Below, piece by piece: positions 3,394 to 58,564 of a stretch of 64,000 nucleotides of DNA. Position numbers and translations under genes: made by a program. The stretch comes from an uncultured Verrucomicrobiae bacterium (GTDB taxonomy: Bacteria > Verrucomicrobiota > Verrucomicrobiia > Opitutales > Opitutaceae): NCBI GenBank assembly GCA_963804395.1, contig CAWDQK010000002.1, positions 1,169 through 65,168 of the forward strand, in the 5' to 3' direction. A model generated the notes under the pieces. It was not told where the DNA came from. It worked only from the letters and a program-made list of their open reading frames with translations, and ran no database searches. Position 1 is the first letter of the stretch. Each line of letters starts with the position of its first letter.

Positions 3394-4797
3394 ATGCCGG
3401 GCGGCGGACCGCCCGCCCGGATGTTTCGCCGCTCACTCCGCAACCGAATGCACCCACCAATCAAGCGCCCCGCGCTGCCGATGCTGCTCGCCGGCGCGCT
3501 CTTGGTGGGGATTTTTGCGGCGTTGGTGGTCGACTTTCGCGCCACGCTGCGGGAGCAGATCAGACAGACAATCATCAACCGCAATGCGGCCGTGCTCCGG
3601 CCGGTGGCCCTGCGGCAGTTGATGCAACGCGAGAACAGCCCCGGCGATCCGGCCAGCCTGCTCGCGGCCGTCCTGGAGAGCGTTCAGCAGGAGGACATGC
3701 TCGCCGTGGTGATTTTTGATGCGCAGGGCCGCACGCTACAGTTTGCTCCGCATTCGCTGCTTTTCGCCGAGCTGCCGCTGGATGATTACCTTCGGCTGCT
3801 CCAAGGCGATCCGATCAGCCGTTTTCATCCGGACTTCCCGCTCGATCGCTATTTTTCCGGCGTTGGCCCGTCGCCGACCGCCCGTTCAACGCCCGTGCTG
3901 GAAGTGCTGCTGCCGCTGCATGGCCGGGATGCCGACAGGAATCTGGGTTTTGCCCAGTATTACATCGACGGCCGTCCGCTGGCCGAGGAACTCTCAGCTA
4001 TCGACCGGCGCATCAACCGTCAGACAGCCGCCACTCTTTGCATCGGTGCCGCGCTGATCATTGCCGTCGTGACGGTCGCGTATTTCCGCCTGCGCCGGGC
4101 GCACGACCGGTTGGTGAAGGCCAATTTCGAACTCACCCTTTCCGCCAAGGCCTCCGCCCTCGGACAGATTTCCTCGCATTTGATTCACGGCTTGCAGGGC
4201 TCCGTCGCCGGTTTGCGGGCCGTCGTGGCTGGCCGCGACCCGGCGGTCGCAGATGCTGCCGACTGGGAGGCTGCCGCCGGATACACGGACCGGATGCAGG
4301 AGATGATTCATGAAGCCGTGGCCCTGTTGGGCGACTCCGCGTCAAGCGAGACGCACGAACTCACCGGGCAGGAGATCGCGAGCCTCATCCGTGAGCGCAG
4401 CGCGGCGGCGGCGGCGCAGAAGGGAGTCATCTTCACGGTTAACGGCCGTTTCGATTGCCCGCTCGACAGTCATCGCGGCGGGCTGCTTTCCCTTATCACC
4501 AGCAATCTTGTCCAGAACGCGATCGAAGCGACCGACGCGGGCCGGAATGTCGTCGTGAAGCTGTGCAGCGGAGATGACAGCGCGTCCATCATCGTTTCCG
4601 ACGAAGGCCACGGCATCGCCGAGGAATTGCGCGCCCATCTCTTCGAGCCCGGTCGAACCGGCCGCCCGGGCGGGTCAGGTTTGGGTCTGGCCATCAGCCG
4701 GTTGCTCGCGCGGCAGATTGGAGCGACCCTGACGCTCGAATCGACGGGAGCCGAGGGAACCACGTTTTGCGTGAAGTTGCCGCTGGTCTACACCTGA
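3394..4797 (+). CDS. sensor histidine kinase with periplasmic sensor domain
   Basis: TM1 LLAGALLVGIFAALVV, ~190-aa extracytoplasmic segment, TM2 LCIGAALIIAVVTVAYF, H-box ISSHLIHGLQGS, HATPase_c N-box NLVQNAIEA, G1 DEGHGI, G2 GSGLGLAIS. The true start may be an internal Met (3421 or later). Confidence 0.8.
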   Translation: MPGGGPPARMFRRSLRNRMHPPIKRPALPMLLAGALLVGIFAALVVDFRATLREQIRQTIINRNAAVLRPVALRQLMQRENSPGDPASLLAAVLESVQQEDMLAVVIFDAQGRTLQFAPHSLLFAELPLDDYLRLLQGDPISRFHPDFPLDRYFSGVGPSPTARSTPVLEVLLPLHGRDADRNLGFAQYYIDGRPLAEELSAIDRRINRQTAATLCIGAALIIAVVTVAYFRLRRAHDRLVKANFELTLSAKASALGQISSHLIHGLQGSVAGLRAVVAGRDPAVADAADWEAAAGYTDRMQEMIHEAVALLGDSASSETHELTGQEIASLIRERSAAAAAQKGVIFTVNGRFDCPLDSHRGGLLSLITSNLVQNAIEATDAGRNVVVKLCSGDDSASIIVSDEGHGIAEELRAHLFEPGRTGRPGGSGLGLAISRLLARQIGATLTLESTGAEGTTFCVKLPLVYT

Positions 4798-4831
4798 GGC
4801 AGGATGGTGCGGAGGAAGTTTGGCCGGGCAT

Positions 4832-4992
4832 GGCGGCGGGCCTCACCGCGCCGGCTACAGCGGACGGTCTTCTGCAGCCGGGGGCGCATGCCCTGAGCCT
4901 GCCGAACGGGCCGACCCCGGCCTGAATGTCTGCCGGGCTGCGGTGCGTAGACTTGATCGAAGGCCGGCCTCACCGCGGCCGGCTACAATTGC
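4832..4992. repeat. GC-rich mosaic palindromic repeat array, family 1 (GGCCGGCCTCAC/ACGCGGCCGGCTACAGCGGACGGTC..CTGCAGCCGGGGGCGC..CCTGAGCCTGCCGAACGG)
   Basis: Modules GGCCGGCCTCA(A/C)CGCGG, CCGGCTACAG, CTGTAGCCGGGGGCGCTGACCCCGG and CTGAGCCTGTCGAACGG recur in varying order at 18940-19100, 30385-30445, 33696-33724, 36323-36546, 37866-37900, 42950-43060, 51495-51530 and 58440-58500. Confidence 0.65.
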
Positions 4993-5063
4993 AAGGGTGC
5001 GCCGGCAGCGCAGCGCCCGCCAGAACCCGAATTGCCGCGTGTTTCTCTCCGGGAAAGCCGGAA

Positions 5064-6101
5064 TCAAGCATCCGCCAGCTGCCGAAACCCAAGCTGATCG
5101 CCGAGGGCGAGGCATTCTGCGGCCGGGCGGACGCTCTGGGAACAGGTTGGGTGATAAAGCGAAGCGGCGGCAGCGCAGACTCCAAGCTTGAGGCTCCGCT
5201 GCATCGTCCAGAATTCGTGGCAGCCGTAGAGAACGCCGGCGGCAAACGCATCGCCCGCACCGGCGAGTCCGGCGATGTCGCCTGCGGGAACATCTACGCT
5301 GGACTGCCAGATCACTCCGCCGCCCGCGGAGCTGGCGCATGCGCCTTCGGGAAAATGGATCAGCGCCCATTCATGCACGCCAAGCCCGACCAGCATCTTG
5401 GCGGCCCGTTCAACCGTGCGGCGATCGAGTTCCATGCCACGCCGGAGGGGAAAGCCGGTGAGTTTCTCGGCTTCAAAGTCATTGGCAAACAGCAAATCGA
5501 CCTCCGGCAGCACCGGCGCGACGACGGTGAGAAAGCGGCCGCTGTTGTCGCTGACGCAATCCATCGACGTCGCCAGGCCGGCCGCTCGCGCCTGCGCGAA
5601 GACCCGGGCCAGGCGCGGGAGGCCGTCAACTCCGGGAGCGTCAAGGGCGTCAAGGAGCAGCGCGTATCCCAGGTGAAAGCGCCGGGCACGCGTGCGGAGA
5701 AAGTCGAAATGTTCCGGCGCGAGGAGCGCGTTCGCGCCGCGCTGGTGAAAAAAGGTGCGGCGACCGGTGGACTTCACTGTCATGACATCCGTGTAGGACG
5801 TGGCGGCGTCCGCCGTGACCGCGAGTTGCGCGGTGCCGATGTGATGGGCGCGGCAGTCGTCGCGGATCAGCCGGCCGCCGTCGTCGTCGCCCACCAAACC
5901 GACGCCTTCGAGCGGAAACGGCGCGCCGAGCCGGGCGAGGTCCTTGAGGACGTTGTACGGCGAGCCGCCATTGCCCCACGACTCACTGAGAATGTTGGCG
6001 AGCGAGTCCTCCGGTGGCCACGCGTCGATGACCTTTACGTGGTCGATGAGCCAGTTGCCGCCGGCGAGAAGGCCGCGGCGCGTTGGATCGATGGCAGTCA
6101 T
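5064..6101 (-). CDS. PfkB-family carbohydrate kinase (ribokinase-like)
   Basis: 345 aa. C-terminal PfkB signature GAGDAFAAGVLYG. N-terminal region resembles ribokinase-fold kinases. Confidence 0.85.
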   Translation of the reverse strand: MTAIDPTRRGLLAGGNWLIDHVKVIDAWPPEDSLANILSESWGNGGSPYNVLKDLARLGAPFPLEGVGLVGDDDGGRLIRDDCRAHHIGTAQLAVTADAATSYTDVMTVKSTGRRTFFHQRGANALLAPEHFDFLRTRARRFHLGYALLLDALDAPGVDGLPRLARVFAQARAAGLATSMDCVSDNSGRFLTVVAPVLPEVDLLFANDFEAEKLTGFPLRRGMELDRRTVERAAKMLVGLGVHEWALIHFPEGACASSAGGGVIWQSSVDVPAGDIAGLAGAGDAFAAGVLYGCHEFWTMQRSLKLGVCAAAASLYHPTCSQSVRPAAECLALGDQLGFRQLADA

Positions 6102-6670
6102 GGAGAGACCAGCTTCACCGCTGCAGGCTCGTCTGCCTCGACGCCGGGGAAGCGGCCGACATCGGGGTTCAGGAAGAGATTGTCGTGGAGGTCGTCGTTG
6201 GCGGTGGAAACCTCACCGATGACGCATTCGGCGCTGGAAGGGAAGAACTCGTGCCACACGCCCGGGACCAGCGTGACTCGCGAGCCGGCGGCAAGGACGA
6301 ACGGTTCTCCGGAACGGACTGTCGTCAGCTCGCCATCGACGGGCACCGCGAACGTGGGGGCGAGTTGGGCCACTGTCGTCGGTTTCGCGGGCCAGAGCCT
6401 GAGCGTAAGTTCGCCCGCGCGGCAGATGATGTCCTCCTTCTTGTTGGCGTGGCAGTGGCAGACCGTGGTCTGGCCCCGCGTCGCCCACATCAGTTTCTCG
6501 CAATACTCCGGCTCCGTCGCGAGGTTGACCAATACGGAACCGTAATGCTCGAAATCGCCGAGGCCAAAGTCGGTGATGTCCCACTTTGGTCTTGGCGGCA
6601 GGGTCCAGCCATTTCGTGCGAAACAGGCGGTGGCGGCACGGAAGGCGGAGTTGATAACGGATTGTTTCAT
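6098..6670 (-). CDS. cupin-type sugar isomerase (D-lyxose/D-mannose ketol-isomerase-like)
   Basis: 190 aa. Cupin metal motif CHCHANKKEDIICRAGE plus second His motif PGVWHEF. Size and motifs fit the D-lyxose isomerase cupin family. Family assignment is from memory, not a search. Confidence 0.45.
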   Translation of the reverse strand: MKQSVINSAFRAATACFARNGWTLPPRPKWDITDFGLGDFEHYGSVLVNLATEPEYCEKLMWATRGQTTVCHCHANKKEDIICRAGELTLRLWPAKPTTVAQLAPTFAVPVDGELTTVRSGEPFVLAAGSRVTLVPGVWHEFFPSSAECVIGEVSTANDDLHDNLFLNPDVGRFPGVEADEPAAVKLVSP

Positions 6671-6676
6671 GACAAT

Positions 6677-7768
6677 TTAGCGTCGGGCGCGGGAAGGCAT
6701 GGCGGTGGGCTGCAAGTCCGCACTGAGCGGCCGGTGGGGGCGAATGCGGAGTCGCCGCAGCGTCGCGTGATAGGCGCGGACCGCCTCGGCCGGCTTGATT
6801 TCACCGTCGGCGATCCGCCGCAAAAACTCGATGAACGTCACCGGATGTTCGGAGAGATTGATCTTTCGGCCGAAAAGCGCCGCCCAAGCGCCATGCTGCT
6901 GGGCGTCGTGGATGAGTTGGAACGCGTCAAGGGTGGTTCCAGCGCTGCCGCCGAGGATTCCGACGATCAGACTTGGATCGTAGGTGACCAACTCTTCGAG
7001 CGGGCCCGGCCCATGGTAGGGAATCTTCAGGAAAATCGGCCGCCCCACCGAGGGCACGCCGGCGAGCGCGCGCACGATGTGGTCGTTGAGAAATGCCCCG
7101 ATCCGGCGGGCGGGAATGCCGGTGGCGACATTCGGATTGAACACTTCGAGGAGATAGCGGAATTGCTTGGCTTCCGCCTCCTGGCGAAAGGCGGCGAACT
7201 CTTCGAGCGTCCGGTGGTCCGCGTCGAGGTTGTTCGTAAAGGTGATTGAATACAGCCCGAGGTCCGCCCCGGTGGCCGGTCGCGTGCAATCCGCCGTCGT
7301 CTGGCCGTATTTGATCTGTTCGATCGACGCACTGCGGAACGGTCGGGATGGCTGGGTGTGGTATTTCCCGCCCCGGACCAGCCAGATGTCGGTTGTGTCG
7401 TTGGCCCGGCCCGCGGGTGTGATCGGGGAGTGCTCGAACAGGCGCTCGCGCATGGCAAGCTGCTCGATGTTCGAGGCGGACAGCAGAACGATGTCCACGA
7501 GACCTTGCGCCACGACGTCGCGGATCTGGGCACGGTAATCCTCCAGTGTCTTCCAGCAACCACCCGGGACCTGGCGGAGCCGCGGCCGCTGCTCTCCCGG
7601 GCCGGGCGCGGTCAGGCCAAGCGCCAGGTCGGCGTCCTTGGCGTCGGCAATGATGAAGTCACTCCGCGTCGCCTGTCCGGCGCGGATGCGGGCCAGCTTT
7701 TCGTCGAGACGTTTCGGTGCGGACATTGGTTTGGGTGACGGATGAGGAGAAGGACGGTGGGGTGCCAT
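6677..7768 (-). CDS. hypothetical protein, possibly a TIM-barrel class I aldolase (LacD/DeoC-like)
   Basis: 363-aa ORF, translationally adjacent to the kinase and isomerase. Assignment is tentative and rests on context plus the IIADAKDAD and FLKIPY segments. Confidence 0.4.
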   Translation of the reverse strand: MAPHRPSPHPSPKPMSAPKRLDEKLARIRAGQATRSDFIIADAKDADLALGLTAPGPGEQRPRLRQVPGGCWKTLEDYRAQIRDVVAQGLVDIVLLSASNIEQLAMRERLFEHSPITPAGRANDTTDIWLVRGGKYHTQPSRPFRSASIEQIKYGQTTADCTRPATGADLGLYSITFTNNLDADHRTLEEFAAFRQEAEAKQFRYLLEVFNPNVATGIPARRIGAFLNDHIVRALAGVPSVGRPIFLKIPYHGPGPLEELVTYDPSLIVGILGGSAGTTLDAFQLIHDAQQHGAWAALFGRKINLSEHPVTFIEFLRRIADGEIKPAEAVRAYHATLRRLRIRPHRPLSADLQPTAMPSRARR

Positions 7769-7877
7769 TATCTGCGCGCCTCGTCGCGCCGCGACGATTT
7801 TGTTGGAGGCTGGCGAGGCGATGGCTCAAGTCGGTGGGCGGTCAACGTGGCGCCTGGCCGCGCCGAAGACGCGCCCA

Positions 7878-7908
7878 GGATCAATGTCAACTAATAGATG
7901 ACATTTCG
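7878..7908. repeat. 31-bp AT-rich palindromic element GGATCAATGTCAACTAATAGATGACATTTCG, copy 1
   Basis: Exact reverse-complement copy at 37944-37974. Internal 7-bp inverted arms AATGTCA/TGACATT around a 9-bp AT-rich core. Supplies the last 7 codons (VEMSSIS) and the stop of the GH2 gene. Confidence 0.8.
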
Positions 7909-10136
7909 ACCCGGGCAGGGGCGCCCGGTGGTTCCTCATCCGCCGGAGCAAGCGGCATTGTGTATTCGGAATCCCATTCCGGGCGTCCCTCGACACGCAG
8001 GCGCAGGGTGAATCGATCGGCGTTGGCGGGGTGGGTCAGGCGCCAGTGCAAAACTGGTCCCCGCACGTGGCGGTCGGAAACGGCTTCCGGGTGCTCCCAG
8101 GTCAAGACGGTCGTTTCGAGGTCAGCCAGGACGATGGCCGCGGCGATGCGGCCGGCGGGAATGGTTTCATTCGAGTCGTTCAGGAGCCAGAGCTCAGCCG
8201 CGAAATCTTCCCCCTCCGTCCAGGAGAATTTCGGGATGCGGGCGCTGGCCATGACCGGCCGGCAGGCTGCGGCTACCGCGTGATAGGCCGGTTTCGGCTC
8301 GGCGGGCCAGTTGACGATGCTGTTGTTGGCAGCGGATGGCCAAGGCTCGTTGAAACACCAGTTGAGGGCCATCGAGCACCCGGGCTTTTGCCGACGCGCC
8401 TCTTCGAAAATCACCTTGTACCCCTCGGCTTGCAGCCATTGACCCTGCGCGACCGCTGCTTCCAGGCCGGCGGGCTCGCCGAAATAGTGTCGCTGAACGT
8501 CGAGGAAAAGCCAGGACGTGGGTTCCATCGACCATGCGCCGAGGCCGTGGTGGACCTGCCAGGACGATCCCGGCTGTGGAGGCCAAAGCTCGGACTCGGG
8601 GATGAATTTCTTGAGGTAATCCACCGGCGAAGGGCCCGGACAGCCGAACTCCGAGTAGGCCGTGCCGCTGGCCGCCGCGAAGATCTGGTGGACTTCGCGT
8701 CCACGCTCGTCGCGGAACCGGTAGTCGCCATGCCTCATGCCGTCCAGGGGCGCCGTCGGAATGAACGGCGTGGCGGGATCGAGATCGAGGCAGTTACGGT
8801 TCAGAATCCGCAACGCGAGCGACTGGTCGGTCATGCGCGACCATGAATTGAACAGCTCGTTGCCGCCGCACCAGATTGCCAGGCACGGATGACGCCGAAG
8901 GCGGCGGATGATCGACCGCGATTCTGCCTCAAGGACCCGCAGGTAGTCCGGATCATCGGCGTAGAGATTGCACGCGAGAGGAAACTCCTGCCAGACCAAC
9001 AGTCCCATTTCATCGCACAGATCGAAGAACCCCTCCTTGTTCACGATCCCGCCGCCCCAGGAGCGGATGAGGTTGAGGTGGGCGTCGCGGATGAGCCCGA
9101 GCAGCGGCCGGTAGGTTGCGGTGTTGATTGTGCCAGGAAAAATGTCGGGAGGCACCCAATTGGTTCCTCGTGCGAAAATCGGCCGGCCGTTGATTTCGAT
9201 CGTGATCGGCGGATGATTGCGCGACTTCGGAAAACTCGCCGGCAGATCCCACGCTCCTTCATGCATCACCAGTTTCACCTGGCGAAATCCAACACGTTCA
9301 ACCCGCTGGTTGACAGGCTTGCCCGACGGATCCAGAAGCTCGAATGTCGCCCGATAGAGCGGCTGGAGCCCATGGTCCTGCGGCCACCAGAGCTGCGGGT
9401 GTGCGAGTTTCGCCACGTCCCGACCTTTGCCTCCGGCCAGGTCGCTCTGGCCACTGAGCACCGCGGCCCCCGAAGGATTCGAAAGCGTCCAACGCCAGCT
9501 CAGACCGTCCGCCGCTGCGGAAGCGGAAACCGCCAACTCCAAATCCGCGCTTCGCAGCGACTGATCCAGGCGATAGGTGACGCCGCATTCCAGAAAATGC
9601 GCCGATGGCCTGACCTCCAGGCAGGTGTCCTGCCAGATGCCCAGCGGAATCAGGCGAGGATGCCAGTCCCATCCATAGGCGACCGCCGGCTTCACGCTCA
9701 GGCGGGCCTGGCTCGGATCGTCCCGTGGCGACGGGGCCATTGGCGCTGGCCAGAGGCGTATTTCCAGAAGGCCGCCCGATTGCGCCCGATCCGTGAGATC
9801 GATTTCAAAGGGCGTGAACATGCCCTCCTGTTCATGCACAATCTGGTCGTTCCAGACGACGGCGAACCGATAGTCAACCCCGCCACAAACGAGAAAAAGT
9901 CGCCCGCTGCCGGCGTTGAAGGAGCCGCCAACCCGGGCGCGATAGGTCCAGTAGACGTCTTCCATCCAGCGATAGGACGCGCAATTGGCGCCGTGCCAAT
10001 AGGGCGGCCAACCCTCTGCCCGCGCCCAGTCGAGCTGCACGGCCCCGGGCACCGCGGCGGGCACCCAACGTGCCGGTCGCGCTTCGGCCGACGGAGCGTG
10101 GCCCACTTCCCAATCGAAATCGATGCGGCGGATCAT
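7887..10136 (-). CDS. glycoside hydrolase family 2 (beta-mannosidase/beta-galactosidase-like)
   Basis: 749 aa. GH2 TIM-barrel segment NLIRSWGGGIVNKEGFFDLCDEMGLLVWQEFPLACN, paralogous to the same segment in 13469-16099. No signal peptide. Confidence 0.8.
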   Translation of the reverse strand: MIRRIDFDWEVGHAPSAEARPARWVPAAVPGAVQLDWARAEGWPPYWHGANCASYRWMEDVYWTYRARVGGSFNAGSGRLFLVCGGVDYRFAVVWNDQIVHEQEGMFTPFEIDLTDRAQSGGLLEIRLWPAPMAPSPRDDPSQARLSVKPAVAYGWDWHPRLIPLGIWQDTCLEVRPSAHFLECGVTYRLDQSLRSADLELAVSASAAADGLSWRWTLSNPSGAAVLSGQSDLAGGKGRDVAKLAHPQLWWPQDHGLQPLYRATFELLDPSGKPVNQRVERVGFRQVKLVMHEGAWDLPASFPKSRNHPPITIEINGRPIFARGTNWVPPDIFPGTINTATYRPLLGLIRDAHLNLIRSWGGGIVNKEGFFDLCDEMGLLVWQEFPLACNLYADDPDYLRVLEAESRSIIRRLRRHPCLAIWCGGNELFNSWSRMTDQSLALRILNRNCLDLDPATPFIPTAPLDGMRHGDYRFRDERGREVHQIFAAASGTAYSEFGCPGPSPVDYLKKFIPESELWPPQPGSSWQVHHGLGAWSMEPTSWLFLDVQRHYFGEPAGLEAAVAQGQWLQAEGYKVIFEEARRQKPGCSMALNWCFNEPWPSAANNSIVNWPAEPKPAYHAVAAACRPVMASARIPKFSWTEGEDFAAELWLLNDSNETIPAGRIAAAIVLADLETTVLTWEHPEAVSDRHVRGPVLHWRLTHPANADRFTLRLRVEGRPEWDSEYTMPLAPADEEPPGAPARVEMSSIS

Positions 10137-10185: not shown

Positions 10186-10237
10186 CTGTAGCGGAGCCGC
10201 GTCCGGCTCCGGCGGCGCGGAACGCCGCGCCGCTACG
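10186..10237. repeat. GC-rich hairpin repeat, family 3 (core GGCGGCGCGGAACGCCGCGCCGC nested in CTGTAGCGG..CCGCTACG)
   Basis: 23-nt core identical to 19174-19196. Sits just downstream of the minus-strand operon ending near 10291. Confidence 0.7.
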
Positions 10238-16251: not shown

Positions 16252-16316
16252 GCGGACACGGCGGTCCGCCCTCCGCTCGCTCACGCTCGCAGCTACGTTT
16301 GCGTTCTCGGCTACAG
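16252..16316. repeat. mosaic GC-rich repeat (GCGGACACGGCGGTCCGCC module + family 2 module + GGCTACAG family 1 module)
   Basis: Reverse complement of GGCGGACCGCCGTGTCCGC (also at 55905-55924 and 36371-36420) joined to the reverse complement of the family 2 arm (916-956) and ending in CGGCTACAG. Confidence 0.6.
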
Positions 16317-16337
16317 TTCTAATTAAACCGCTCAAGT

Positions 16338-18899
16338 CTAATTCAACAGGTGCCCGGCTTCATCCAAGATCGCTGGATCGACCGGCAGGGTCTTCAGGTC
16401 AGTCTTCAGCTGCTCATAGTTCTTCAGAAACGCTTCGACGTCCTGCACGCATCCCGCCGGGTTGTAGTTGATCTTGATGTCCGTCAGTTCGGTGCCCGCC
16501 AGGGCGGATGGCAGCAGGTCGCCTTTCCAATTCGATTTGATCAGGCGGAGGCAGCTGGTCAGACGAGCCATCTTACCGATCACGCCGTTGAGGTCGGCCG
16601 ACTTTGCCAGGGTTTCGGGCGCGTAGGCGACCGTCACGGTGACCTTGCTGCTACACGCGGTGGATGGCACAAAAATGTGCGTGGTGAGGTCTGCGCCGGT
16701 GTAATCCCAACTGGCGCCCGACGCTTCCGTGGAATAGGCAATCCTGGTTCCGTTGACGGTAACCTGCGCCGGTGGGAACCGGCCGCAGAACTGGACTTCG
16801 TAGGAACGCGCTGCGGTCATCCCGGTATAGCTGCCTTCGCGCGGGAGGATCGTCAGCGTCATCGACCCGTCGGGGTTTTGGACGGTTTGGAGCGGCGTGA
16901 ACGCATATCCCTTGTTCTGGTATTCGAGACTGTCGCCCTGGTCTTCATACATGCGGGCGGATGCAGCACCGCCCGGGAAGACGCGCACGATGAGCTTGTC
17001 CGGATTCTGCTGGAGGTTGTCGATGCGCGGATACAACGGGATGATTGCGCCGGCCCGGACGTATACCGGCACCTGGTTGATCATGAACCTCCGCTCGTAG
17101 GTCTGGCCGCCTTTGAGCAGGGTGCCGCTAAACCATTCGTACCAGTCGCCCTCCGGCAGCCAGACGTTCACCGTCGCGAGGCCCTGGTTTTCCTTCGAGG
17201 TCACCGGGCGCACGATCAGGTCGTCGCCAAACAGGTACTGATTCGGGCAGGCATAGGCCTCCTTCTGGCCGGCGTAGTCATAGTACATCGGATGGCAGAG
17301 CGAGACACCTGTGTCGTAGGCTTTGCGGGCCATCGTATACACATAGGGCGCCAGAGCGTATCGGAGGCTGATGGCGTCGAACATCGGACCGCGGTAATAC
17401 GGGGGATAGGTCCAGACCTCCTTGTTGATTCTGGCATCCTTGGTCGAATGGGTCCGGAAGATCGGGCTGAAGGTGGCGAACTGCAGCCAGCGCGTGTAGA
17501 GCTCGGGATCCATGGGACGCACCGGATCCACCGGTTGCGCAAGCATGTGTCCGCCGATGTCATGGCTCCAATATCCATAGCCGACATTGGCGGCGGTGGA
17601 GGTGAAATACGGTTGGTAGTCCAGCGAGTTCCAGGTGATGTACGTGTCGCCGGAGAACCCGATCTGGTACCGGTGGTTCCCCATGCCGCCCCAGCGGTGG
17701 TAGATCAGGGGCCGGTGTTCCCCGGAACGTTCCATGTCCGAGAAGAAGCAGTAGTTCAGCCACCAGGTATTGCTCAACTCGGGAAGCTGCCTGGAATTCG
17801 GCCATTGCTGCCAGTCCAGCCACCAGAAATCCACTCCCTGCCGCTGCAACGGATGCAGGACGATATTAAACAAATTCGTCATGTACCGTTTGTCCGCGGC
17901 CTCGAACGGCACCGGTTGCGAGCCGGCTGGGTCGAAGCCCATGGCCCGCGCGAATTCGGGGTATCTCTCCTCGGTGGACTGGATGCCCGACGCCGGATGG
18001 AGATTCAGCGTCGTCTTCAACCGCTGCTGGTGGACCCAATTCAGAAACGCCGCCGGCTCGGGGAAGAGGCTGCGATTCCAGGTGAATCCGGTCCAACCCT
18101 CGGTGTGCCAGTCCATGTCGACGACCAGCACGTCGCAGGGAATCTGGTAGCGGTGGAAATTGCCGACCAGTTCCCGGAGTTCGCGGTCGGAGTAGTTCCA
18201 GTAGCGCGACCACCAGTACCCGAAGGCGAAGCGCGGCGGCAGCGGAATCTTGCCGGCAACCTGCGTGAAATCATAGAGCGCGGCCTTGTAGTCCCGCGCG
18301 TATCCAAAGAAGTACCAATCCTGCCGTTCCCCCGCCGGACGCGGCTGAACCCAGCTCCAATCGGAACCGTCAAACAGCAGGTTCGCCGAGTCATCCGACA
18401 GACACCATCCGTCGGTCGAGATGAGGCCGTCTCCCAAAGCGATGTCTTTTTGGTCTTCGACGTGGAGAGGACCGTTGCAGCCATCGAGCGTCCGATAGGT
18501 GCCCTTAAGATTGCCCGCGTTCTTCTCGCCGGGCTTCCAGGCAACCGGATTGCGGGGGTCGCGGAATGTTATCTGGAGATTCTCAGCCGTGAACCGGCCC
18601 GATCCCAATCGGTACCTGAGTTCGAGTTTCTCGGTCTGAATGGAAAGATATCCGTCTTTCTCCGCCTTGGAATACTGCGGAACGGGAAGGTCGCGGTTGA
18701 GGTACAGCAATGAGGCGTGATCCTCGAACTGCCCAGCGGCGTCCCATTCCATCCGGATCAGCCCCGGGGTCAGCACCGTGAATCTGGCGTCGGGGCAGGT
18801 GACCACCGCGGCCGGATTGGCAACAGGATTGTTTCCGGCCTCCACCGGCGCGACCAGACAGAACAAAAACAGGAGCAGTGAACCGATGAACGATTTCAT
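16338..18899 (-). CDS. glycoside hydrolase family 31 (alpha-glucosidase/alpha-xylosidase-like), secreted
   Basis: Start at the internal Met (MKSFIGSLLLFLFCLVAPVEA signal peptide). GH31 hallmarks GWTGFTWN, DFWWLDWQQW, WSHDIGGH. The upstream 41 codons of the ORF run across a repeat array. Confidence 0.85.
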   Translation of the reverse strand: MKSFIGSLLLFLFCLVAPVEAGNNPVANPAAVVTCPDARFTVLTPGLIRMEWDAAGQFEDHASLLYLNRDLPVPQYSKAEKDGYLSIQTEKLELRYRLGSGRFTAENLQITFRDPRNPVAWKPGEKNAGNLKGTYRTLDGCNGPLHVEDQKDIALGDGLISTDGWCLSDDSANLLFDGSDWSWVQPRPAGERQDWYFFGYARDYKAALYDFTQVAGKIPLPPRFAFGYWWSRYWNYSDRELRELVGNFHRYQIPCDVLVVDMDWHTEGWTGFTWNRSLFPEPAAFLNWVHQQRLKTTLNLHPASGIQSTEERYPEFARAMGFDPAGSQPVPFEAADKRYMTNLFNIVLHPLQRQGVDFWWLDWQQWPNSRQLPELSNTWWLNYCFFSDMERSGEHRPLIYHRWGGMGNHRYQIGFSGDTYITWNSLDYQPYFTSTAANVGYGYWSHDIGGHMLAQPVDPVRPMDPELYTRWLQFATFSPIFRTHSTKDARINKEVWTYPPYYRGPMFDAISLRYALAPYVYTMARKAYDTGVSLCHPMYYDYAGQKEAYACPNQYLFGDDLIVRPVTSKENQGLATVNVWLPEGDWYEWFSGTLLKGGQTYERRFMINQVPVYVRAGAIIPLYPRIDNLQQNPDKLIVRVFPGGAASARMYEDQGDSLEYQNKGYAFTPLQTVQNPDGSMTLTILPREGSYTGMTAARSYEVQFCGRFPPAQVTVNGTRIAYSTEASGASWDYTGADLTTHIFVPSTACSSKVTVTVAYAPETLAKSADLNGVIGKMARLTSCLRLIKSNWKGDLLPSALAGTELTDIKINYNPAGCVQDVEAFLKNYEQLKTDLKTLPVDPAILDEAGHLLN

Positions 18900-18939
18900 G
18901 GGACCTGGATGGTTTGGGTGTAGCCGGGGGCGCCCGCCC

Positions 18940-19100
18940 TGACCCATTCGACTCCGCTCAGGGTCATCCTGAGCCTGTCGAACGGATGAGCCTGTCGAAC
19001 GGGCTGCCCCCGGTCTGTTCATTCGAAAATCCAGGCCGGCCTCAACGCGGTCGGCTACAGCGGACGGTCATCTGTAGCCGGGGGCGCTGACCCCGGTCTG
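18940..19100. repeat. GC-rich mosaic palindromic repeat array, family 1
   Basis: CTGAGCCTGTCGAACGG x2, GGCCGGCCTCAACGCGG, CGGCTACAGCGGACGGTCATCTGTAGCC (8-bp arms around an 11-nt loop), GGGGGCGCTGACCCCGG. Confidence 0.7.
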
Positions 19101-19173
19101 GTTAGGACGGAAGTGTTGACTCTCCCAATACATTCGGCGTGCCTGCGGCTCAATGTCTTTCAGATCCGGTTCC

Positions 19174-19196
19174 GGCGGCGCGGAACGCCGCGCCGC
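19174..19196. repeat. GC-rich hairpin repeat, family 3 (GGCGGCGCGGAACGCCGCGCCGC)
   Basis: Identical 23-nt core to 10211-10233. Lies just downstream of deoC on the minus strand. Confidence 0.7.
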
Positions 19197-19230
19197 GACG
19201 CGGCCAATCAGAAACGAAACTGACGTCGAC

Positions 19231-20001
19231 TCAACCAGCAAGTCCGGCGGGGATCGGTCCGGGCAGGCCGCGTTTGATGGCGGCAACCAGGATGGCCTCG
19301 GTCGCGGTGGCGCCGACGCGAGTCACGCCCAAAGCGCGCACCCGCAGCAGATCATCGAGGGTCCGCACGCCGCCGGCCGCCTTGATCTGCACGCCCGGGC
19401 CGCTGTGTTGCCGCATCAGCTTCAGATGTGCGTCCGTGGCGCCCTTGTAGTTGTAGTCACCGTTGGCCTGCTTCACGAAGCCATAGCCGGTGGACGTCTT
19501 CACAAAGGCGACCCGGTGTTCGGTGCAGATCTCGCATAGCCGCACGATGTGTCCATCCTGCAGGTAATCGGTCTCGAAGATCACCTTGAGAATCGCCCCC
19601 CTGGCCACGCAGGCGTCATTGATGGTTCTCAGTTCGTCAGACACATAGGCCCAGTCACCGCCGAGGACCTTGCCGATATTGACCACGACATCGATCTCGG
19701 AGGCGCCTTCGGCGATGGCTCCTTCGGCTTCTGCAACCTTGATGGCAACATGACTGTTGCCGTGGGGAAAGCCGGTTACGGCGCAGACCCCGACACCGGA
19801 ACCGGCCAGTGCGGACGCTGAATGCGGCACGGCGTAGGGCTTGACGCAGGCGGTGGCGCAACCGCATCGGCGCGCGATGGCCAGACCGGCCGCGAGTTGC
19901 ACATCGGTGAATGTCGGATGGAGCAGGGAATGGTCGATCATCCGTGCAAGCTCGGCGATGGAAGGGAGACCGGATGCTGACGGGAGGATGGCGGGATTCA
20001 T
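19231..20001 (-). CDS. deoC: deoxyribose-phosphate aldolase
   Basis: 256 aa. IDHSLLHPTFT, Schiff-base lysine region FVKTSTG, IKAAGGVRT. Confidence 0.9.
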   Translation of the reverse strand: MNPAILPSASGLPSIAELARMIDHSLLHPTFTDVQLAAGLAIARRCGCATACVKPYAVPHSASALAGSGVGVCAVTGFPHGNSHVAIKVAEAEGAIAEGASEIDVVVNIGKVLGGDWAYVSDELRTINDACVARGAILKVIFETDYLQDGHIVRLCEICTEHRVAFVKTSTGYGFVKQANGDYNYKGATDAHLKLMRQHSGPGVQIKAAGGVRTLDDLLRVRALGVTRVGATATEAILVAAIKRGLPGPIPAGLAG

Positions 20002-24900: not shown

Positions 24901-26377
24901 TGCTCGACGCGCGCCCGGCCGCGCTGCCGGCTGGTCTGGCGCCCGGCAGCCAGGCGGCATTGACCGGCGTCTACGAGATCCAGTCGGACGAATACCGGCG
25001 GCCGGAGACGGTCCGGTTGCAACTGCGAACGGGCGGCGATGTCCGCCTGATTAAGAATGCGCCCTGGCTGACGGGCTGGCGGGTTGTTGCGCTTATTGGC
25101 GTGCTGGCGGCGAGTCTGGTCCTTGGAAGTGCCTGGGTGTTTGTGTTGCGCCGCCGGGTGGAGAAACAGACCGACCAGATTCGGGAGCAATTGGAAAAGG
25201 AAAAGGCGGCGCGCCTCGAGACCGACCTCCTGCGCACCTCCAAGCTTGAGTCGCTCGGTGTGCTGGCCGGTGGCATCGCGCACGATTTCAACAACATGCT
25301 CACCGCGGTGATGGGCAATATCTCGCTCGCCAAGCTCGACCGACAGTGCGAGCCGGAGACCCTCCAACACCTGGAGGAGAGCGAGCGCGCGGTGCTTCGG
25401 GCCCGCGAGCTGACCCAGCAGTTGCTCACGTTTGCCCGGGGTGGAGCGCCGGTTCGAACCGTCACCGCGTTGCCGGAGATTGTGATGGAGGCGTCCCGGT
25501 TCGCGCTGCATGGATCCAAGGTCAGCTGCGAATTCAACATCGCGGACGACCTCTGGCTGGCGGATGTCAACAAGGGCCAGATTGCGCAGGTCGTCCACAA
25601 TATCATCATCAATGCCGACCATGCGATGCCCCAGGGCGGCGTTATCCGCATCACCTTGCGCAACGACCGGGTGGGCTCCGAGCGTCGCAGCGGGCTTGCG
25701 GCCGGCTGCTACCTCAAGCTGAGTGTTGCCGACACCGGAAAGGGCATCAGTCCTGAGAACCTTCCCGGATCTTTGAACCATACTTTACCACCAAGGGCAC
25801 GGGCAGCGGGCTCGGCCTGACGACCGTTTTCTCAATTGTTTCCCGGCATCAGGGGCATGTCGAAGTGGAATCCAGGGTCGGTAGCGGCACGACCTTCCAT
25901 ATCTGGCTACCGGCGCGCGAAGGGATGCTCGAATCTTCGCTTCCGGTGAAGTCTTTGGGAACCGCCGTACCCGGAGCGCGGCAGCGGAAAGGCCGGATTC
26001 TGTTCATGGACGACGAGGCGGCGATCCGGCAGATGGCTGTCGCCACGCTTCGACGCATGGGGCACGAGGTCACGGCGGTGGACGATGGTTCGGCGGCCGT
26101 CATCGAGTATTCCGCCGCGCACGAGGCCGGCCGGGGTTATGACGTGGTGATCCTCGACCTGACGGTGCCCGGCGGGATGGGCGGCGCCAAGGCGATGGAG
26201 AAGCTCCGGCAGATGGATCCGGAGGTTCGCGCGATTGTGTCGAGCGGGTACTCGAACGATCCGGTGCTGGCCAACTACCGCAGCCACGGGTTCCGTGCGA
26301 TCGTGCCCAAGCCATACGAGATCGGGGTGCTGACCGACGCGATCGATGCCCTGTTGCGCGAAGGCAGAGAACTGTAG
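21971..26377 (+). CDS. hybrid sensor histidine kinase/response regulator with large repetitive periplasmic region; two frame switches (near 23567 and 25765)
   Basis: Frames 2, 3 and 2 joined. Two ~190-aa tandem modules ([36 protein letters not shown] vs [36 protein letters not shown]), about six ~70-aa beta-rich units ending ..[29 protein letters not shown], His[13 protein letters not shown], HATPase [29 protein letters not shown], receiver [21 protein letters not shown]. Frame switches sit at gggg and ccc runs. Confidence 0.8.
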
Positions 26378-26750
26378 CCGGAGGCGGCTGCCCTGAGACT
26401 GATCCCGCGGGCCTTCGCCCGCCACCGGGCATCGCTGACAGCGGCGGCAAAGCGAGGATCGTTGGCATCCACGCAACCCAGTTGAGCCAGATGTATCTCG
26501 GGGCTGTTGATGACCGGTGGCTCGCTGACCTCGTCTGTGTCCGGCTGGGGTTCCGGAAGCCGGCTGAGCGACTCACCGGTCGCCATACGTCGGGGCGATA
26601 AGAGGAAATTCCCGGACCCTGTGCGAGCCAATTGCGGTTGAAGCGGATCGGCCTTGAACTGCAGATGACGCCAGTGACAAAATTTGGAACAACCTCCCTC
26701 CGCATCAGGGAAGGCGAAAGTCCTCCAGCCGCCAGGGACTGCCGGGCGTT

Positions 26751-30264: not shown

Positions 30265-30513
30265 CTTCTCACGAAAACGCCGCCCAACGCAAAAAAAAAG
30301 ACCACGGGGGAAACCTTCCCGAGGGCGCCACAGGGAAACTGCCGCCGGGGGCGCACTCCGTCGCCAAGGCTTCGGAGCGCAGGCTGACCCCGGCAGGTCG
30401 TTTCGATATCCGGGCCGGCCTCAACCCGGCCGGCAACAGCGTAACCAGCGCCGCCCTCCAGCCGAATTGGCTGACACGGCGGCCCGCCAGACCACAGGGG
30501 CTGGCAGGCTCCT

Positions 30514-33570: not shown

Positions 33571-33913
33571 GGGGTGGAGAAGATGCGCCAAACTTAAAGG
33601 CGTAATCCGCGATTGGCACAAGCGCGAAACCGACGCTCTTCCCGGAAGCGGTCGCGGCGGACACGGCGGGACAGGCCGTCAACGGCGTTCGCGCAGTTGT
33701 AGCCGGCCGCGTTGAGGCCGGCCCACGCGCCGGGACCGCCCTGCGCTCCGAAGCCTTGGCAAAGGAGTGCGTCCCGGCTACAGACCGCCCAGGCGGCGTG
33801 GACACCGCTTGTGCGGCCTACCAAACCGCCATCCAAGCCGGTACGGGCTGCCCGGGCATCAGCCTGCTGGCTCCAGGATTGCGTTTGCCCGGGCCGGCGG
33901 CAGCCTCCCGGGC

Positions 33914-34405
33914 ATGCAATCGCATGAGCTCCTGAAGGAAATCCTCCAGAAAATCAGTGCCAAGCAGATCTCTGCGGAGATGGGTCTTTCGCTGTCGCTG
34001 ATCTACAAATGGGCCGAGCCGGCGGAGGAGGGCAGCGGCGCCTCCAATCCGCTGGACCGCATCGAGCAGCTGCTGAGGCTGACCGGCGACCGGCGTCTGG
34101 CTCAATGGGTGGCGGAGCGGGCGGGCGGCTTCTTCATCCGGAATCCGAAGAACAATCCGCAGGCCACCCATTTGATTCCGGCCACCAACACGATCGTGCA
34201 GGAGTTCGCCGACATGCTGGCGGTGATTGCGGCCGCGGCGACCGACAGCACGATCACCAAGGAGGAGGCGGAGGACATTCGCGACCGGTGGGAGGAGCTC
34301 AAGTCGGTCACGGAGGGATTTGTTCGCTGCTGCGAAGCGGGCAATTTCGGGCCGGTCCACCAGCACCTGGCGGGCCGCGCGAAGGGCGCGGAAACGGGCG
34401 GGTGA
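33914..34405 (+). CDS. hypothetical protein with putative N-terminal helix-turn-helix
   Basis: Start at the internal ATG (MQSHELLKEILQKISAKQISAEMGLSLSLIYKWAEP). The upstream part of ORF 33767-34405 lies across repeats. Confidence 0.45.
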   Translation: MQSHELLKEILQKISAKQISAEMGLSLSLIYKWAEPAEEGSGASNPLDRIEQLLRLTGDRRLAQWVAERAGGFFIRNPKNNPQATHLIPATNTIVQEFADMLAVIAAAATDSTITKEEAEDIRDRWEELKSVTEGFVRCCEAGNFGPVHQHLAGRAKGAETGG

Positions 34406-35797: not shown

Positions 35798-36196
35798 CTA
35801 GGCCAGGGAGACAGCCCCCTTCTTGGGAATCGTCACCGTTAATGTGCCTCGGCGAAGATCGGCCTTCAGGGCGTCGTAGGCGAGGCTGAAGCCGAGCCGC
35901 AGCCGCAGTCGGTAATCGTGGACGACGTTGACGAGTCGCGCCGGCGTCCGAGCCCGATCCCTGGTGGCAGTAATCGTCAGATCAGGCGCGTCAACTTCGA
36001 GATCGACTCCGGAGGGATCAGCGCCGGGGACATGGATCACTAGTGTGAGCGTATCCGGTTGTTCTTTGCAATGATAACGCGGCCGGCTGAAGACGGGTTG
36101 ACGCGCTTGAGGGGAGGCAGCGGACGCGAACGGGGTATTAGACTTCCGGGCGCCCGAGGTGCGCTGGGGCGCGGTCGGTTCCAAGATATCATTCAT
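35798..36196 (-). CDS. Hsp20/alpha-crystallin family small heat-shock protein
   Basis: Start at the internal Met MNDILEP. Alpha-crystallin domain ending GTLTVTIPKK. The ORF part upstream (36197-36514) is a repeat array. Confidence 0.75.
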   Translation of the reverse strand: MNDILEPTAPQRTSGARKSNTPFASAASPQARQPVFSRPRYHCKEQPDTLTLVIHVPGADPSGVDLEVDAPDLTITATRDRARTPARLVNVVHDYRLRLRLGFSLAYDALKADLRRGTLTVTIPKKGAVSLA

Positions 36197-36322
36197 TGGA
36201 AAGGGGCTGATGTAGAAGCCTATCGGTAATGAAACCGCAGAATTTAGCGCGAATTTCGAGAAAACGCGGGCGGGCGCTTTGGCGGAAGCTTCGGATTGGC
36301 AGGCGGTGTTCGCCGCAATCGC

Positions 36323-36546
36323 CCTGTAGCCGGGGGTGCCGACCCCGGCCTGAGGCTCGCCTGTGTGGAGGGCGGACCGCTTGCCTTCGCTCAAGCTGCG
36401 GCTGGGCCGCCGTGTCCGCCGCTCGCCGCTACCGGAAAACTGTAGCCGGGGGCGCCTTGGCCCGCCGTAGCCTCGCGCGAAGGCGGCCGACTCCGGCGCA
36501 GTGGCCGGCCTCAACGCGGCCGGCTACAACTGCTGGGAGCTGTAGA
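36323..36546. repeat. GC-rich mosaic palindromic repeat array (family 1 modules plus GGCGGACCGC..CCGTGTCCGCC module)
   Basis: CTGTAGCCGGGGGTGCCGACCCCGG, GGCGGACCGC..GCTCAAG..GCCGCCGTGTCCGCCGCTC, CTGTAGCCGGGGGCGCC, GGCCGGCCTCAACGCGGCCGGCTACAACTG..GAGCTGTAG. Confidence 0.7.
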
Positions 36547-36565: not shown

Positions 36566-36949
36566 TTAGGCCGCCGCGCCAGCCATGGCCACCGGAGCCT
36601 TCTTGGGGATCGTGATGGCGAGTGCCCCGTCACGCAACGAAGCCTCAAGTCCGTCGAAATTGAGCCGGTGGCCAAGCCGCAGCCGCAGTTGGTAATCGTG
36701 CTGCACCGGTTCAAGGTGCAGCGCGCGCCAGTTGGGGCGTACCAGATGACTCTTCTTTGCGGTCACAATCAGATCGGGCCCCTCGACCGTGATCTCAACA
36801 CTGCTGGCGTCAACTCCGGGGACGTAAAGCACGAGGTTTAGCGCATCCATGTGCTCCTGGCAGTCATAATGCGGCCGGCGGAACGCGTCCTTGCGGGCGA
36901 AGGCCGGGGAGGGCTTTTTTGATCTGAGGGAACGGATGATTTGGTTCAT
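36566..36949 (-). CDS. Hsp20/alpha-crystallin family small heat-shock protein (paralog)
   Basis: 127 aa. Alpha-crystallin domain ending GALAITIPKK. Paralogous to 35798-36196 (DYQLRLRLGxxL shared). Confidence 0.75.
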   Translation of the reverse strand: MNQIIRSLRSKKPSPAFARKDAFRRPHYDCQEHMDALNLVLYVPGVDASSVEITVEGPDLIVTAKKSHLVRPNWRALHLEPVQHDYQLRLRLGHRLNFDGLEASLRDGALAITIPKKAPVAMAGAAA

Positions 36950-37504: not shown

Positions 37505-37879
37505 ATGCCTTCACTTTCCGACGCCACTACCACCATCGCCGATCTCAAAGCCCGCGTGCTTGCCTTCAGCCGGGAGCGGGATTGGGAACAGTTCCATTCG
37601 CCAAAGAACCTTAGCATGGCGCTCGCCGCGGAGGCGGGAGAATTGATGGAGCATTTCCTGTGGGTGGATCCGAACGCGTCCCAGGAGCGGTCCCGCGAGG
37701 CGGTGCGACGCCGGAAGATCGAGGAGGAAATTTCCGACGTGGTGATCTATTCGCTCGAATTTGCGAATGTCACGGGAATTGATCTGGCGGGCGCCATTGA
37801 GGCCAAACTTGCCGCCAACGCCCTGAAATATCCCGTGGACAAGGCCCGGGGCCGGTCGGAAAAATACACCGAATTGTAG
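37505..37879 (+). CDS. MazG-like nucleotide pyrophosphohydrolase
   Basis: Start at MPSLSD. EExGELxE-type motif AAEAGELMEHFLW and second EE motif KIEEEISDVVIY. Confidence 0.7.
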   Translation: MPSLSDATTTIADLKARVLAFSRERDWEQFHSPKNLSMALAAEAGELMEHFLWVDPNASQERSREAVRRRKIEEEISDVVIYSLEFANVTGIDLAGAIEAKLAANALKYPVDKARGRSEKYTEL

Positions 37880-37943
37880 CCGGCCGCGCTTGGGCCGACC
37901 TTCGCGCCAGCCGGCGGCGCGTCAGTCCCGCCGCCGCCCAGGC

Positions 37944-37974
37944 CGAAATGTCATCTATTAGTTGACATTGATCC
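37944..37974. repeat. 31-bp AT-rich palindromic element, copy 2 (reverse complement of 7878-7908)
   Basis: CGAAATGTCATCTATTAGTTGACATTGATCC. Contains TTGACA on the plus strand. Confidence 0.8.
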
Positions 37975-42949: not shown

Positions 42950-43060
42950 ACTTGTAGCCGGGGGCGCTGACCCCGGCATGCCCATCGAAACCTCGCACGG
43001 AGGGCCGGCCTCAACCCGTTCGACACGCTCAGGGCAGGCGCGGCCGGCTACAGCGTGACA
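42950..43060. repeat. GC-rich mosaic palindromic repeat array, family 1
   Basis: CTTGTAGCCGGGGGCGCTGACCCCGG, GGCCGGCCTCAACCCG, reverse complement of CTGAGCGTGTCGAACGG, GCGCGGCCGGCTACAGCG. Confidence 0.7.
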
Positions 43061-44564: not shown

Positions 44565-44605
44565 GATTCCGCGCCGCGACCCAAAATTCCTCCGGTTCCG
44601 GCAAC

Positions 44606-51475: not shown

Positions 51476-51591
51476 GTCAAAACTGAAGGATGGGCTGATC
51501 GTCCGCGGCCGGCTACAGCTGCAGGATCAGCGCTGACGGCGCCGTCGAGTGGCTCACACCGCGGCCACACTTTTGTTGGAAACCGCTCCAG

Positions 51592-55934: not shown

Positions 55935-56017
55935 TGGCCTCCGTCGCGCGAAAGCGGCTTGGCTGGTACTGAAATCGAGAATGCAAGCGTCGCTGCGACC
56001 GCCAATCCCACGACGAG

Positions 56018-56086
56018 CTCGGGGCCCTGAGCTCGTCGATCGGGCGAGCAGAAGGGGCGCCCACTCGCTGGGCTCGTGGCTACACC
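56018..56086. repeat. GC-rich mosaic repeat (CTCGGGGCCCTGAGCTCGTCGATCGGGCGAGCAG..CCACTCGCTGGGCTCGTGGCTACA)
   Basis: Near-duplicate of 58440-58500 (CTCGGGGCCCTGAGCTTGTCGAACGGGCAAGCAGGCTCCTACAG). Contains the family 2 arm CCACTCGCTGG. Confidence 0.65.
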
Positions 56087-58296: not shown

Positions 58297-58564
58297 CGCC
58301 AGCCCCAACCGGCGGGAAAAAATTTTGGTCGCATCTATGCTGACTGTAGGAGCGAGCTTCCGCCTTCGCAAATGCTTCGGCGGACAGGTGCTCGCGACCT
58401 GTCCTCCGCAGGCTCGGCGAAGGAGGATTTCGATCTGAGAATCGCCTGCCTCTCGACATGCTCGGGGCCCTGAGCTTGTCGAACGGGCAAGCAGGCTCCT
58501 ACAGCGACCAACTAACGATATCATCTCCGCGAGTGAAGGCGGCGTCAATTGGCGAACGCCGGAT

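Follow-up and report, generated by a model that had tools for sequence, protein, structure and literature searches.

The window analysed here is a stretch of 64,000 nucleotides from contig CAWDQK010000002.1 (assembly GCA_963804395.1, positions 1,169 to 65,168) of an uncultured Verrucomicrobiae bacterium. The organism belonged to the Opitutaceae: its SucC shared 82-84% identity with the proteins of Rariglobus, Geminisphaera, Nibricoccus and Opitutus, and 93-97% with metagenomic proteins. The G+C content was 60-67% almost throughout the window, and the genes were ordinary housekeeping and carbohydrate-active ones. Two minus-strand genes, for a DeoC-like aldolase and for a GH31 enzyme, enclosed between the stop codon of the former and the start of the latter a cluster of GC-rich palindromic repeats with the anatomy of repetitive extragenic palindromic (REP) elements. 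A preliminary description of the window had placed this cluster at 18940-19100 and had listed short modules recurring in shuffled combinations at ten sites. The cluster in fact extended from 18918 to 19096, and all ten sites carried the motifs, which were strongly enriched.

The modules were real, but all of them reduced to one template plus enlargements of its loop. This template, TGTAG-CCGG-SS-GCGYTGA-SS-CCGG, consisted of an unpaired GTAG head, a stem of 6 bp and a loop of 7 nt; the units measured 24-27 nt, with stems of 6-7 bp and loops of 7 nt. Two compensatory stem subtypes coexisted, A (CC/GG) and B (GG/CC). The type A unit, TGTAGCCGGCCGCGTTGAGGCCGG, corresponded to the first two modules of the preliminary description read on the appropriate strand, and the type B unit, TGTAGCCGGGGGCGCTGACCCCGG, to the third, and GGCCGGCCTCAMCGCGG together with CCGGCTACAG made up one REP on the opposite strand. 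With at most one mismatch CTGTAGCCGG matched the window 20 times against 3.6 expected, a count reached in none of 100 shuffles. GGCCGGCCTCAMCGCGG had 7 matches with up to two mismatches (0.16 expected). At up to three mismatches there were 6 for CCTGAGCCTGTCGAACGG (0.16 expected) and 9 for the unified 24-nt template TGTAGCCGGSSGCGYTGASSCCGG (0.01 expected). A hairpin-aware scan of the window assigned 18 copies at 10 sites to the main REP family. The head (C/T)TGTAG preceded the stem in 11 of the 18, and head variants of one or two bases were found in the other 7. None of the copies ran into predicted coding sequence, except for an overlap of 6 nt with each of two stop codons (P ~3e-6, with the 10 sites taken as independent and the coding fraction as a lower bound). 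The copies, followed by two related composites, were:

4833..4858, minus strand: degenerate A-type REP CTGTAGCCGGCGCGGTGAGGCCCGCCGC, in a GTAG-inward pair with 4872-4920 over the spacer CGGACGGTCTT
4872..4920, plus strand: B-type REP with head CTGCAG; loop of 31 nt, enlarged by the CCTGAGCCTGCCGAACGG module
4962..4988, minus strand: A-type REP TTGTAGCCGGCCGCGGTGAGGCCGGCC, GTAG-outward partner of 4872-4920
18918..19013, plus strand: B-type REP; loop of 78 nt holding the hairpin CCCATTCGACTCCGCTCAGG/CCTGAGCCTGTCGAACGG and a duplicated right arm
19034..19060, minus strand: A-type REP CTGTAGCCGACCGCGTTGAGGCCGGCC
19072..19096, plus strand: canonical B-type REP CTGTAGCCGGGGGCGCTGACCCCGG, exact template; GTAG-inward with 19034-19060, spacer CGGACGGTCAT
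26372..26428, plus strand: degenerate B-type REP with enlarged loop; its GTAG head provides the TAG stop of the response-regulator gene 26006-26377
30339..30393, plus strand: B-type REP with degenerate head CTGCCG; loop enlarged by the hairpin GCGCACTCCGTCGCCAAGGCTTCGGAGCGC
30413..30439, minus strand: A-type REP with head GTTG, GTAG-outward partner of 30339-30393
33697..33723, plus strand: canonical A-type REP, exact template
33730..33783, minus strand: B-variant REP with stem CCGGGA/TCCCGG; same loop hairpin as the 30339 copy; GTAG-outward partner of 33697-33723
36324..36348, plus strand: B-type REP singleton CTGTAGCCGGGGGTGCCGACCCCGG
36440..36496, plus strand: B-type REP; loop enlarged by the hairpin GCCCGCCGTAGCCTCGCGCGAAGGCGGC
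36503..36529, minus strand: canonical A-type REP, GTAG-outward partner of 36440-36496
37874..37898, plus strand: degenerate A-type REP; its GTAG head provides the TAG stop of the MazG-like gene 37505-37879
42952..42976, plus strand: canonical B-type REP, exact template
43003..43053, minus strand: A-type REP; loop of 31 nt through CCTGAGCGTGTCGAACGG; GTAG-outward partner of 42952-42976
51492..51518, minus strand: truncated A-type REP; head and 5' stem kept (CTGTAGCCGGCCGCGG), 3' stem lost
58443..58500, minus strand: related composite upstream of the GH20 gene; head CTGTAGGA, stem GCCTGC/GCAGGC, enclosing the hairpin CCGTTCGACAAGCTCAGG/CCGAGCATGTCGAG
56000..56085, minus strand: diverged second copy of the composite at 58443-58500 (52 nt at 81% identity)

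The main unit of the window was an inverted heterodimer of one B and one A copy with the GTAG heads facing outward, the layout of a REPIN. Six such pairs were present (4872/4988, 18918/19060, 30339/30439, 33697/33783, 36440/36529 and 42952/43053), all A+B heterodimers with 4-5 mismatches. At two sites (4833-4988 and 18918-19096) a third REP was added, giving an alternation of A and B copies like the clusters known as bacterial interspersed mosaic elements (BIMEs). The preference for outward pairs also held beyond the window. Together with 103 related loci the material amounted to 810 kb and 249 copies, and 160 of these lay in GTAG-outward pairs, of which there were 80, compared with 3 GTAG-inward and 7 tandem arrangements. 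In this larger set homodimers were mixed with GG+CC or GG+CG heterodimers, the heterodimers being common. Partners were 0-116 nt apart, and the spacers were unrelated in sequence.

The preliminary description had taken an 8-bp stem between GGCTACAG and CTGTAGCC as a structure of the repeats. This stem does exist at 4852-4881 and 19052-19081, where two REPs meet with their heads inward, but not elsewhere, and the dominant hairpin lies inside each REP. As the main structure the 8-bp stem was rejected, being confined to two sites and to an orientation found 3 times in 810 kb as against 80 outward pairs. The two inward junctions of the window had a common spacer, CGGACGGTC(A/T)T, while the other spacers were variable.

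Folding predictions gave every copy as a hairpin of its own or each pair as one long hairpin. Covariation was examined in 199 distinct copies, collected from the window and the 103 related loci by seeding only on TGTAGCCGG. The variable dinucleotides of the stem changed in concert (GG/CC in 102 copies, CC/GG in 22, CG/CG in 15, GA/TC in 12 and GC/GC in 3). The two variable stem pairs were paired in 175-178 of the 199 copies, whereas shuffling gave means of 115-123 and maxima of 135-139. Over all six stem pairs 89% of the cells were paired in register, as opposed to 31-58% when the partner was slid by 1-3 columns, and the excess of in-register pairing was also seen in the 111 copies lacking an exact match to the scan pattern. 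The elements are hairpins whose stems are kept by compensatory change. A search of the window against Rfam, at gathering thresholds and at a permissive E <= 5, had a tRNA as its only significant match and gave none at the repeats.

A GTAG-tagged superfamily of REPs has been defined by Di Nocera, De Gregorio & Rocco (2013, BMC Genomics 14:522; PMC3733652), who describe Opitutus terrae as 'highly enriched in GTAG repeats'. Their account also covers compensatory stem sub-families, homo- and heterodimers, repeat-specific REPtrons and, in other GTAG families, long self-complementary loops; dimers with GTAG outside are named 'HH' and those with GTAG inside 'TT'. The peptides listed there as encoded by GTAG-17 REPs include RGQRPRL, VAGGGDP and VAGVADPG/PGSASPA. 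RGQRPRL is the exact reverse-strand translation of GTAGCCGGGGGCGCTGACCCCGG, and VAGGGDP and VAGVADPG each differ by one residue from its forward translation, VAGGADPG. We are highly confident that the elements of the window are REPs of the GTAG-tagged superfamily. On the strength of these published peptides, rather than of a consensus sequence, their family is probably GTAG-17 of O. terrae or one very close to it.

O. terrae PB90-1 belongs to the same family, the Opitutaceae, and its GTAG-17 elements appear to have the GTAG head and the CCGGGG/CCCCGG stem of the B type in the window; in both cases the dimers with GTAG outside ('HH') predominate and several REP families occur per genome. There are also differences. 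The loop in the window is mostly GCGCTGA, as against the TCGCCGA implied by the GTAG-17 peptides, and many window loops are enlarged to 31-78 nt. In the window B forms heterodimers with a CC/GG-stem subtype, and the spacers measure 6-43 nt as against 1-2 nt in O. terrae GTAG-17; the many intragenic copies reported for O. terrae contrast with none within genes in the window.

A second GTAG-type hairpin family, GTAGCGGCGCGGCGTTCCGCGCCGCC, was also present in the window. At 10186-10237 it formed a GTAG-outward pair with GTAGCGGAGCCGCGTCCGGCTCCG, and another hairpin of this family at 19175-19200 (minus strand; head CGTC/GTCG) adjoined the cluster at 18918-19096. The two sites had a 36-nt repeat in common (94% identity).

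REPs are non-autonomous elements that would be spread and maintained in trans by a REP-associated tyrosine transposase (RAYT) encoded elsewhere in the genome. The preliminary description had proposed that such a gene be sought, and in related genomes the same REPs were indeed found on both sides of one. At five loci in four genomes (L019 and L100-L103, with two genes in L103) they bracketed a RAYT gene of 153 aa. The gene in L019 (4435-4917, minus strand; Y1_Tnp/RAYT-like), found through a weak tblastn match, had two frameshifts within ~60 nt near the region of the catalytic tyrosine, which points either to a pseudogene or to a fault in the assembly. The repaired 155-aa sequence had 1771 homologues at E <= 1e-10, most of those listed being 153 aa long. 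For many of the listed homologues the JGI name was 'REP element-mobilizing transposase RayT'; some belonged to Udaeobacter or Chthoniobacterales. In L100-L103 REP doublets stood a few bases 5' of the start codon, and the head of the downstream REP held the TAG stop of the gene. In L101 and L102 the gene occupied the same syntenic position.

Four intact RAYTs scored 111-116 bits on the NCBIfam model NF047646 (REP-associated tyrosine transposase; cutoff 80) and also matched PF01797. Their only relative in the PDB was the E. coli TnpA-REP 4ER8 (E = 9e-11 over 136 residues), with which the HUH motif (HVH) and the motif of the catalytic tyrosine (Y-x-x-NPV) aligned. Judged by its sequence, then, the partner protein in the related loci is a RAYT, predicted to have the Y1 HUH fold and above the family cutoff. 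L103 carried two full-length paralogues (1030-1488 and 5001-5459), about 66% identical to each other. One of them, 91.5% identical to RAYT P0003, was flanked by REPs with CG, GG and CC stems, and the other, ~68% identical, by REPs with the stem GGGATC. This suggests that each RAYT lineage may be paired with a REP stem subtype. In a full-text literature search combining RAYT with Verrucomicrobia no further paper of relevance came up, and one for REP with words beginning in Opitut gave none.

By analogy, the enzyme would recognise the folded hairpin and the GTAG head on single-stranded DNA, and would then cut and rejoin the REP strand. The parallels lie in two known systems. The REP/BIME elements of E. 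coli likewise have a GTAG head and an imperfect palindrome, come in two REP types alternating in orientation and are extragenic, and the gene of their cognate Y1 HUH transposase, TnpA-REP, has REPs on either side, as has that of the verrucomicrobial RAYT. The sequences, however, are unrelated beyond GTAG, and of the spacers only CGGACGGTC(A/T)T is conserved here, at two sites. In the REPIN-RAYT system of Pseudomonas fluorescens (Bertels & Rainey 2011, cited in PMC3733652) the inverted doublet is the main unit, as here; the RAYT of the Verrucomicrobia looks resident too, and in L103 the paralogues are flanked by their own stem subtypes. In contrast to that system, the window doublets are mismatched heterodimers rather than near-perfect long hairpins, and they occur in a different phylum.

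Several points weigh against this explanation for the present organism. Mobilisation by a RAYT is inferred from the homologous systems of E. coli and Pseudomonas. The 64-kb window itself contained no RAYT gene when searched by tblastn with E. coli YafM (used as a probe only) and with verrucomicrobial RAYTs. For the source organism the survey covers this window, and a cognate RAYT and genome-wide dispersal are predictions for it. Moreover, because several heads are degenerate (CTGCAG, CTGTTG, CTGCCG) or copies truncated, the population in the window may be decaying rather than active.

The repeats do not look like the product of a local duplication, which the preliminary description had named as the alternative: their 10 intergenic sites were unrelated and spanned 47 kb, and the 24-mer was scattered over many contigs in ~50 other genomes. 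A scan of the exact template against a collection of species-representative genomes, whose listing sets a lower bound to the taxonomic distribution, gave at least 99 stretches; they belonged to about 50 assemblies (counted by accession prefix), nearly all labelled Verrucomicrobiota. Among the matches listed were Opitutaceae, Opitutales, Chthoniobacterales, Udaeobacter, 'Spartobacteria', Akkermansiaceae and one Kiritimatiellia; one Opitutaceae metagenome-assembled genome gave 22 of the stretches listed, and four listed loci were labelled otherwise (Phycisphaerales, Blastocatellia, Roseiarcus and Acidimicrobiia).

Two of these four loci carried dimers of the GTAG REP family. L053 (CAWBAT010000005.1, 'Acidimicrobiia') had several at 3701-7980, and L028 (Blastocatellia) had dimers at 479-642. 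L053 has a G+C content of 52% and encodes a protein of the TonB-dependent-receptor type. Because the best named relatives of this protein are from Acidobacteria, the label of L053 is doubtful as evidence across phyla. For L053 and L028 the choice is between a mistaken taxon label and a REP family that reaches beyond the phylum.

At the other end of the scale, two close relatives (L104 and L106; SucC 93-94% identical, DNA 82-85% over sucCD) had no REP in 21 kb each. The spacer upstream of sucC measured 157 nt in L104 and 60 nt in L106, both without a REP, compared with 261 nt including the B+A pair 30339-30439 in the window. Such presence in one genome and absence in others is what one would expect if the element were mobile or unstable.

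It remains to account for the modules that did not fit the simple template. Three inner hairpin segments were recognised, CCGTTCGACAGGCTCAGG/CCTGAGCCTGTCGAACGG (the fourth module of the preliminary description), GCGCACTCCGTCGCCAAGGCTTCGGAGCGC and GCCCGCCGTAGCCTCGCGCGAAGGCGGC. In the window they always lay within a REP loop, after GCG, so that the loop grew to 31-78 nt, and no inner segment was found there free of a GTAG-hairpin context. The enlarged units still fold into one long hairpin; for the region 18916-19016 as single-stranded DNA this had -30.3 kcal/mol and z = -4.6. The apparent extra modules (CTGAGCCTGTCGAACGG and the two others) thus arise because the REP loop has been enlarged by a self-complementary segment. 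Similarly, the CTGAGC..GTCGAACGG module reported for 58443-58500 was present, but within a GTAG hairpin with a different stem, GCCTGC/GCAGGC.

It could be argued instead that CTGAGCCTGTCGAACGG and the other two segments are independent small mobile elements inserting specifically into REP loops, so that the mosaic would reflect interacting families. Three unrelated segments do occupy one and the same loop position after GCG, and the first of them occurred in A-stem REPs, in B-stem REPs, in the different-stem hairpin at 58443-58500 and once in L056. Against this, the segments were confined to GTAG hairpins in the window and were almost lacking in 746 kb of related genomes; furthermore GTAG-3 and GTAG-14 are described in PMC3733652 as having long self-complementary loop variants. 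We regard independent insertion as unlikely, and since the segments were always in a GTAG hairpin and nearly absent from the related genomes we treat them as loop variants of the REP. Outside the window a REP with the CTGAGCTTGTCGAAGGA module in its loop (GTAGCCGGGGCCTCATCCTGAGCTTGTCGAAGGACGACCCCGG) was seen only in L056, near 1927 (minus strand), on a contig labelled Roseiarcus.

The REPs might also be thought to serve primarily as regulatory signals of the host, as Rho-independent terminators or stabilisers of mRNA 3' ends, non-mobile and selected site by site. Most copies were indeed downstream of a gene or between genes of the same direction, the hairpins are stable, and REPs of E. coli are known to stabilise the mRNA upstream. 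A canonical terminator role, which the preliminary description had considered, is nevertheless not supported in the one cluster scanned, where no T-run follows the hairpins. The scan, for terminators and promoters in the single region 18700-19400, found neither, with 0 terminator-like sites, and by eye the sequence after the other hairpins inspected was GC-rich. The pair at 33697-33783 lies between divergent genes. Selection on individual sites also fits poorly with the conservation of sequence as well as structure in ~50 genomes, with REPs flanking a dedicated transposase gene and with close relatives that lack REPs at the orthologous spacer. A primarily regulatory, immobile nature is for these reasons very unlikely. 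A secondary role in RNA is compatible with the explanation of the repeats as REPs: where transcribed, hairpins in 3' or inter-cistronic RNA may stabilise mRNA 3' ends or cause attenuation.

Correia elements, miniature inverted-repeat transposable elements (MITEs) of Neisseria, are likewise short, dispersed, intergenic, foldable and able to alter the expression of neighbouring genes, but they measure ~100-155 bp and have 26-bp terminal inverted repeats and TA duplications, unlike the ~25-nt GTAG-tagged hairpins with a Y1 transposase partner found here. The preliminary description had also called the repeats Correia-like. That they arose by deletion from an insertion sequence of the DDE type, and so have terminal inverted repeats and duplicated target sites, is hardly credible: they are short, dispersed, intergenic and found in both orientations, and on the surface a GTAG-outward pair looks like an element whose ends are inverted, but the single unit is only ~25 nt, partners are separated by unrelated spacers of 0 to >100 nt, the bracketed gene encodes a Y1/HUH enzyme (PF01797, NF047646) rather than a DDE transposase, and no terminal inverted repeats were seen beyond the REPs themselves (target-site duplications were not searched for).

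The REP/BIME-like half of the same suggestion was supported by the anatomy of the elements, namely the GTAG head, the short GC-rich hairpin, the compensatory subtypes, the inverted dimers and the extragenic position. As REPs, the repeats are a kind of element already described and represent no new class. What may go beyond the published description is the breadth of REP and RAYT in the Verrucomicrobiota, the frequency of loop enlargements in the window lineage and the use of GTAG heads as stop codons.

The REPs had visible effects on the apparent ends of genes. The preliminary description had noted spurious upstream extensions of open reading frames (ORFs), and this was borne out for two of them. 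The GH31 ORF (16338-19022) was falsely extended upstream, its true start being likely at 18899, and the GH20 ORF (56173-58950) was likewise spuriously extended upstream. In PMC3733652 REPs are similarly reported at the N-termini of ORFs whose true start may be downstream, and short ORFs are regarded as plausibly spurious. The gene that had been called MIF, however, is MazG-like, and the REP overlaps its stop rather than its start. The TAG stops of the response-regulator gene (26375-26377) and of the MazG-like gene (37877-37879) lay inside a GTAG head, as did those of all five intact RAYT genes in L100-L103 (TTGTAG followed directly by CCGG). Either such stop codons were made by REP insertion, or genes tolerate the head precisely where they end.

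Some other repeats and features of the window may be mentioned. A 59-nt direct repeat (35862-35920 and 36642-36700, 76% identity) joined the Hsp20 gene 36566-36949 to the ORF 35798-36514, which may be a second Hsp20 paralogue and which, as listed, extends upstream through the REP cluster 36324-36529. Reverse-complement copies of a 46-nt repeat (7878-7923 and 37929-37974, 91% complementary) were 30 kb apart and each intergenic; with its core AATGTCAACTAATAGATGACATT and a lower G+C content than its surroundings, this repeat may be bound by a protein or may represent a further small family of repeats. A 60-nt repeat of a different family (899-958 and 16272-16331, 83% identity) contained CGCTCGCTCACGCTCGC and the end CGGCTACAG, and had shorter copies near 21311 and 39554. 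After the tRNA gene at 44606-44677 came the one stretch of low G+C content in the window (44000-46000, 55% versus ~63%), and this region may be an integrated element. A phage CII-like gene (33914-34405) and an S24 peptidase-like gene (43373-43879) were located elsewhere in the window.

In Opitutaceae genomes the REPs account for a set of seemingly unrelated intergenic motifs, and in the present window for the spurious upstream extensions of the GH31 and GH20 ORFs and for two borrowed TAG stops. Among soil Verrucomicrobiota, Udaeobacter and Chthoniobacterales included, this GTAG REP and its RAYT are widespread, which offers a non-proteobacterial setting for the persistence of REPIN-RAYT systems. 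A bolder proposal, which we put forward tentatively and consider rather doubtful as a whole, is that one REP and its cognate 153-aa RAYT have stayed nearly unchanged across Opitutales, Chthoniobacterales including Udaeobacter, possibly Kiritimatiellia and perhaps Acidobacteriota, that RAYT paralogues co-diversify with the stem subtypes, and that the loop of the window lineage (GCG^CTGA) is a preferred entry for small hairpin segments. If true, the loop as an entry point would point to RAYT-type cleavage at the CT of the loop, and the family as a whole would represent a REPIN-RAYT partnership of great age, maintained by vertical descent in bacteria other than Proteobacteria.

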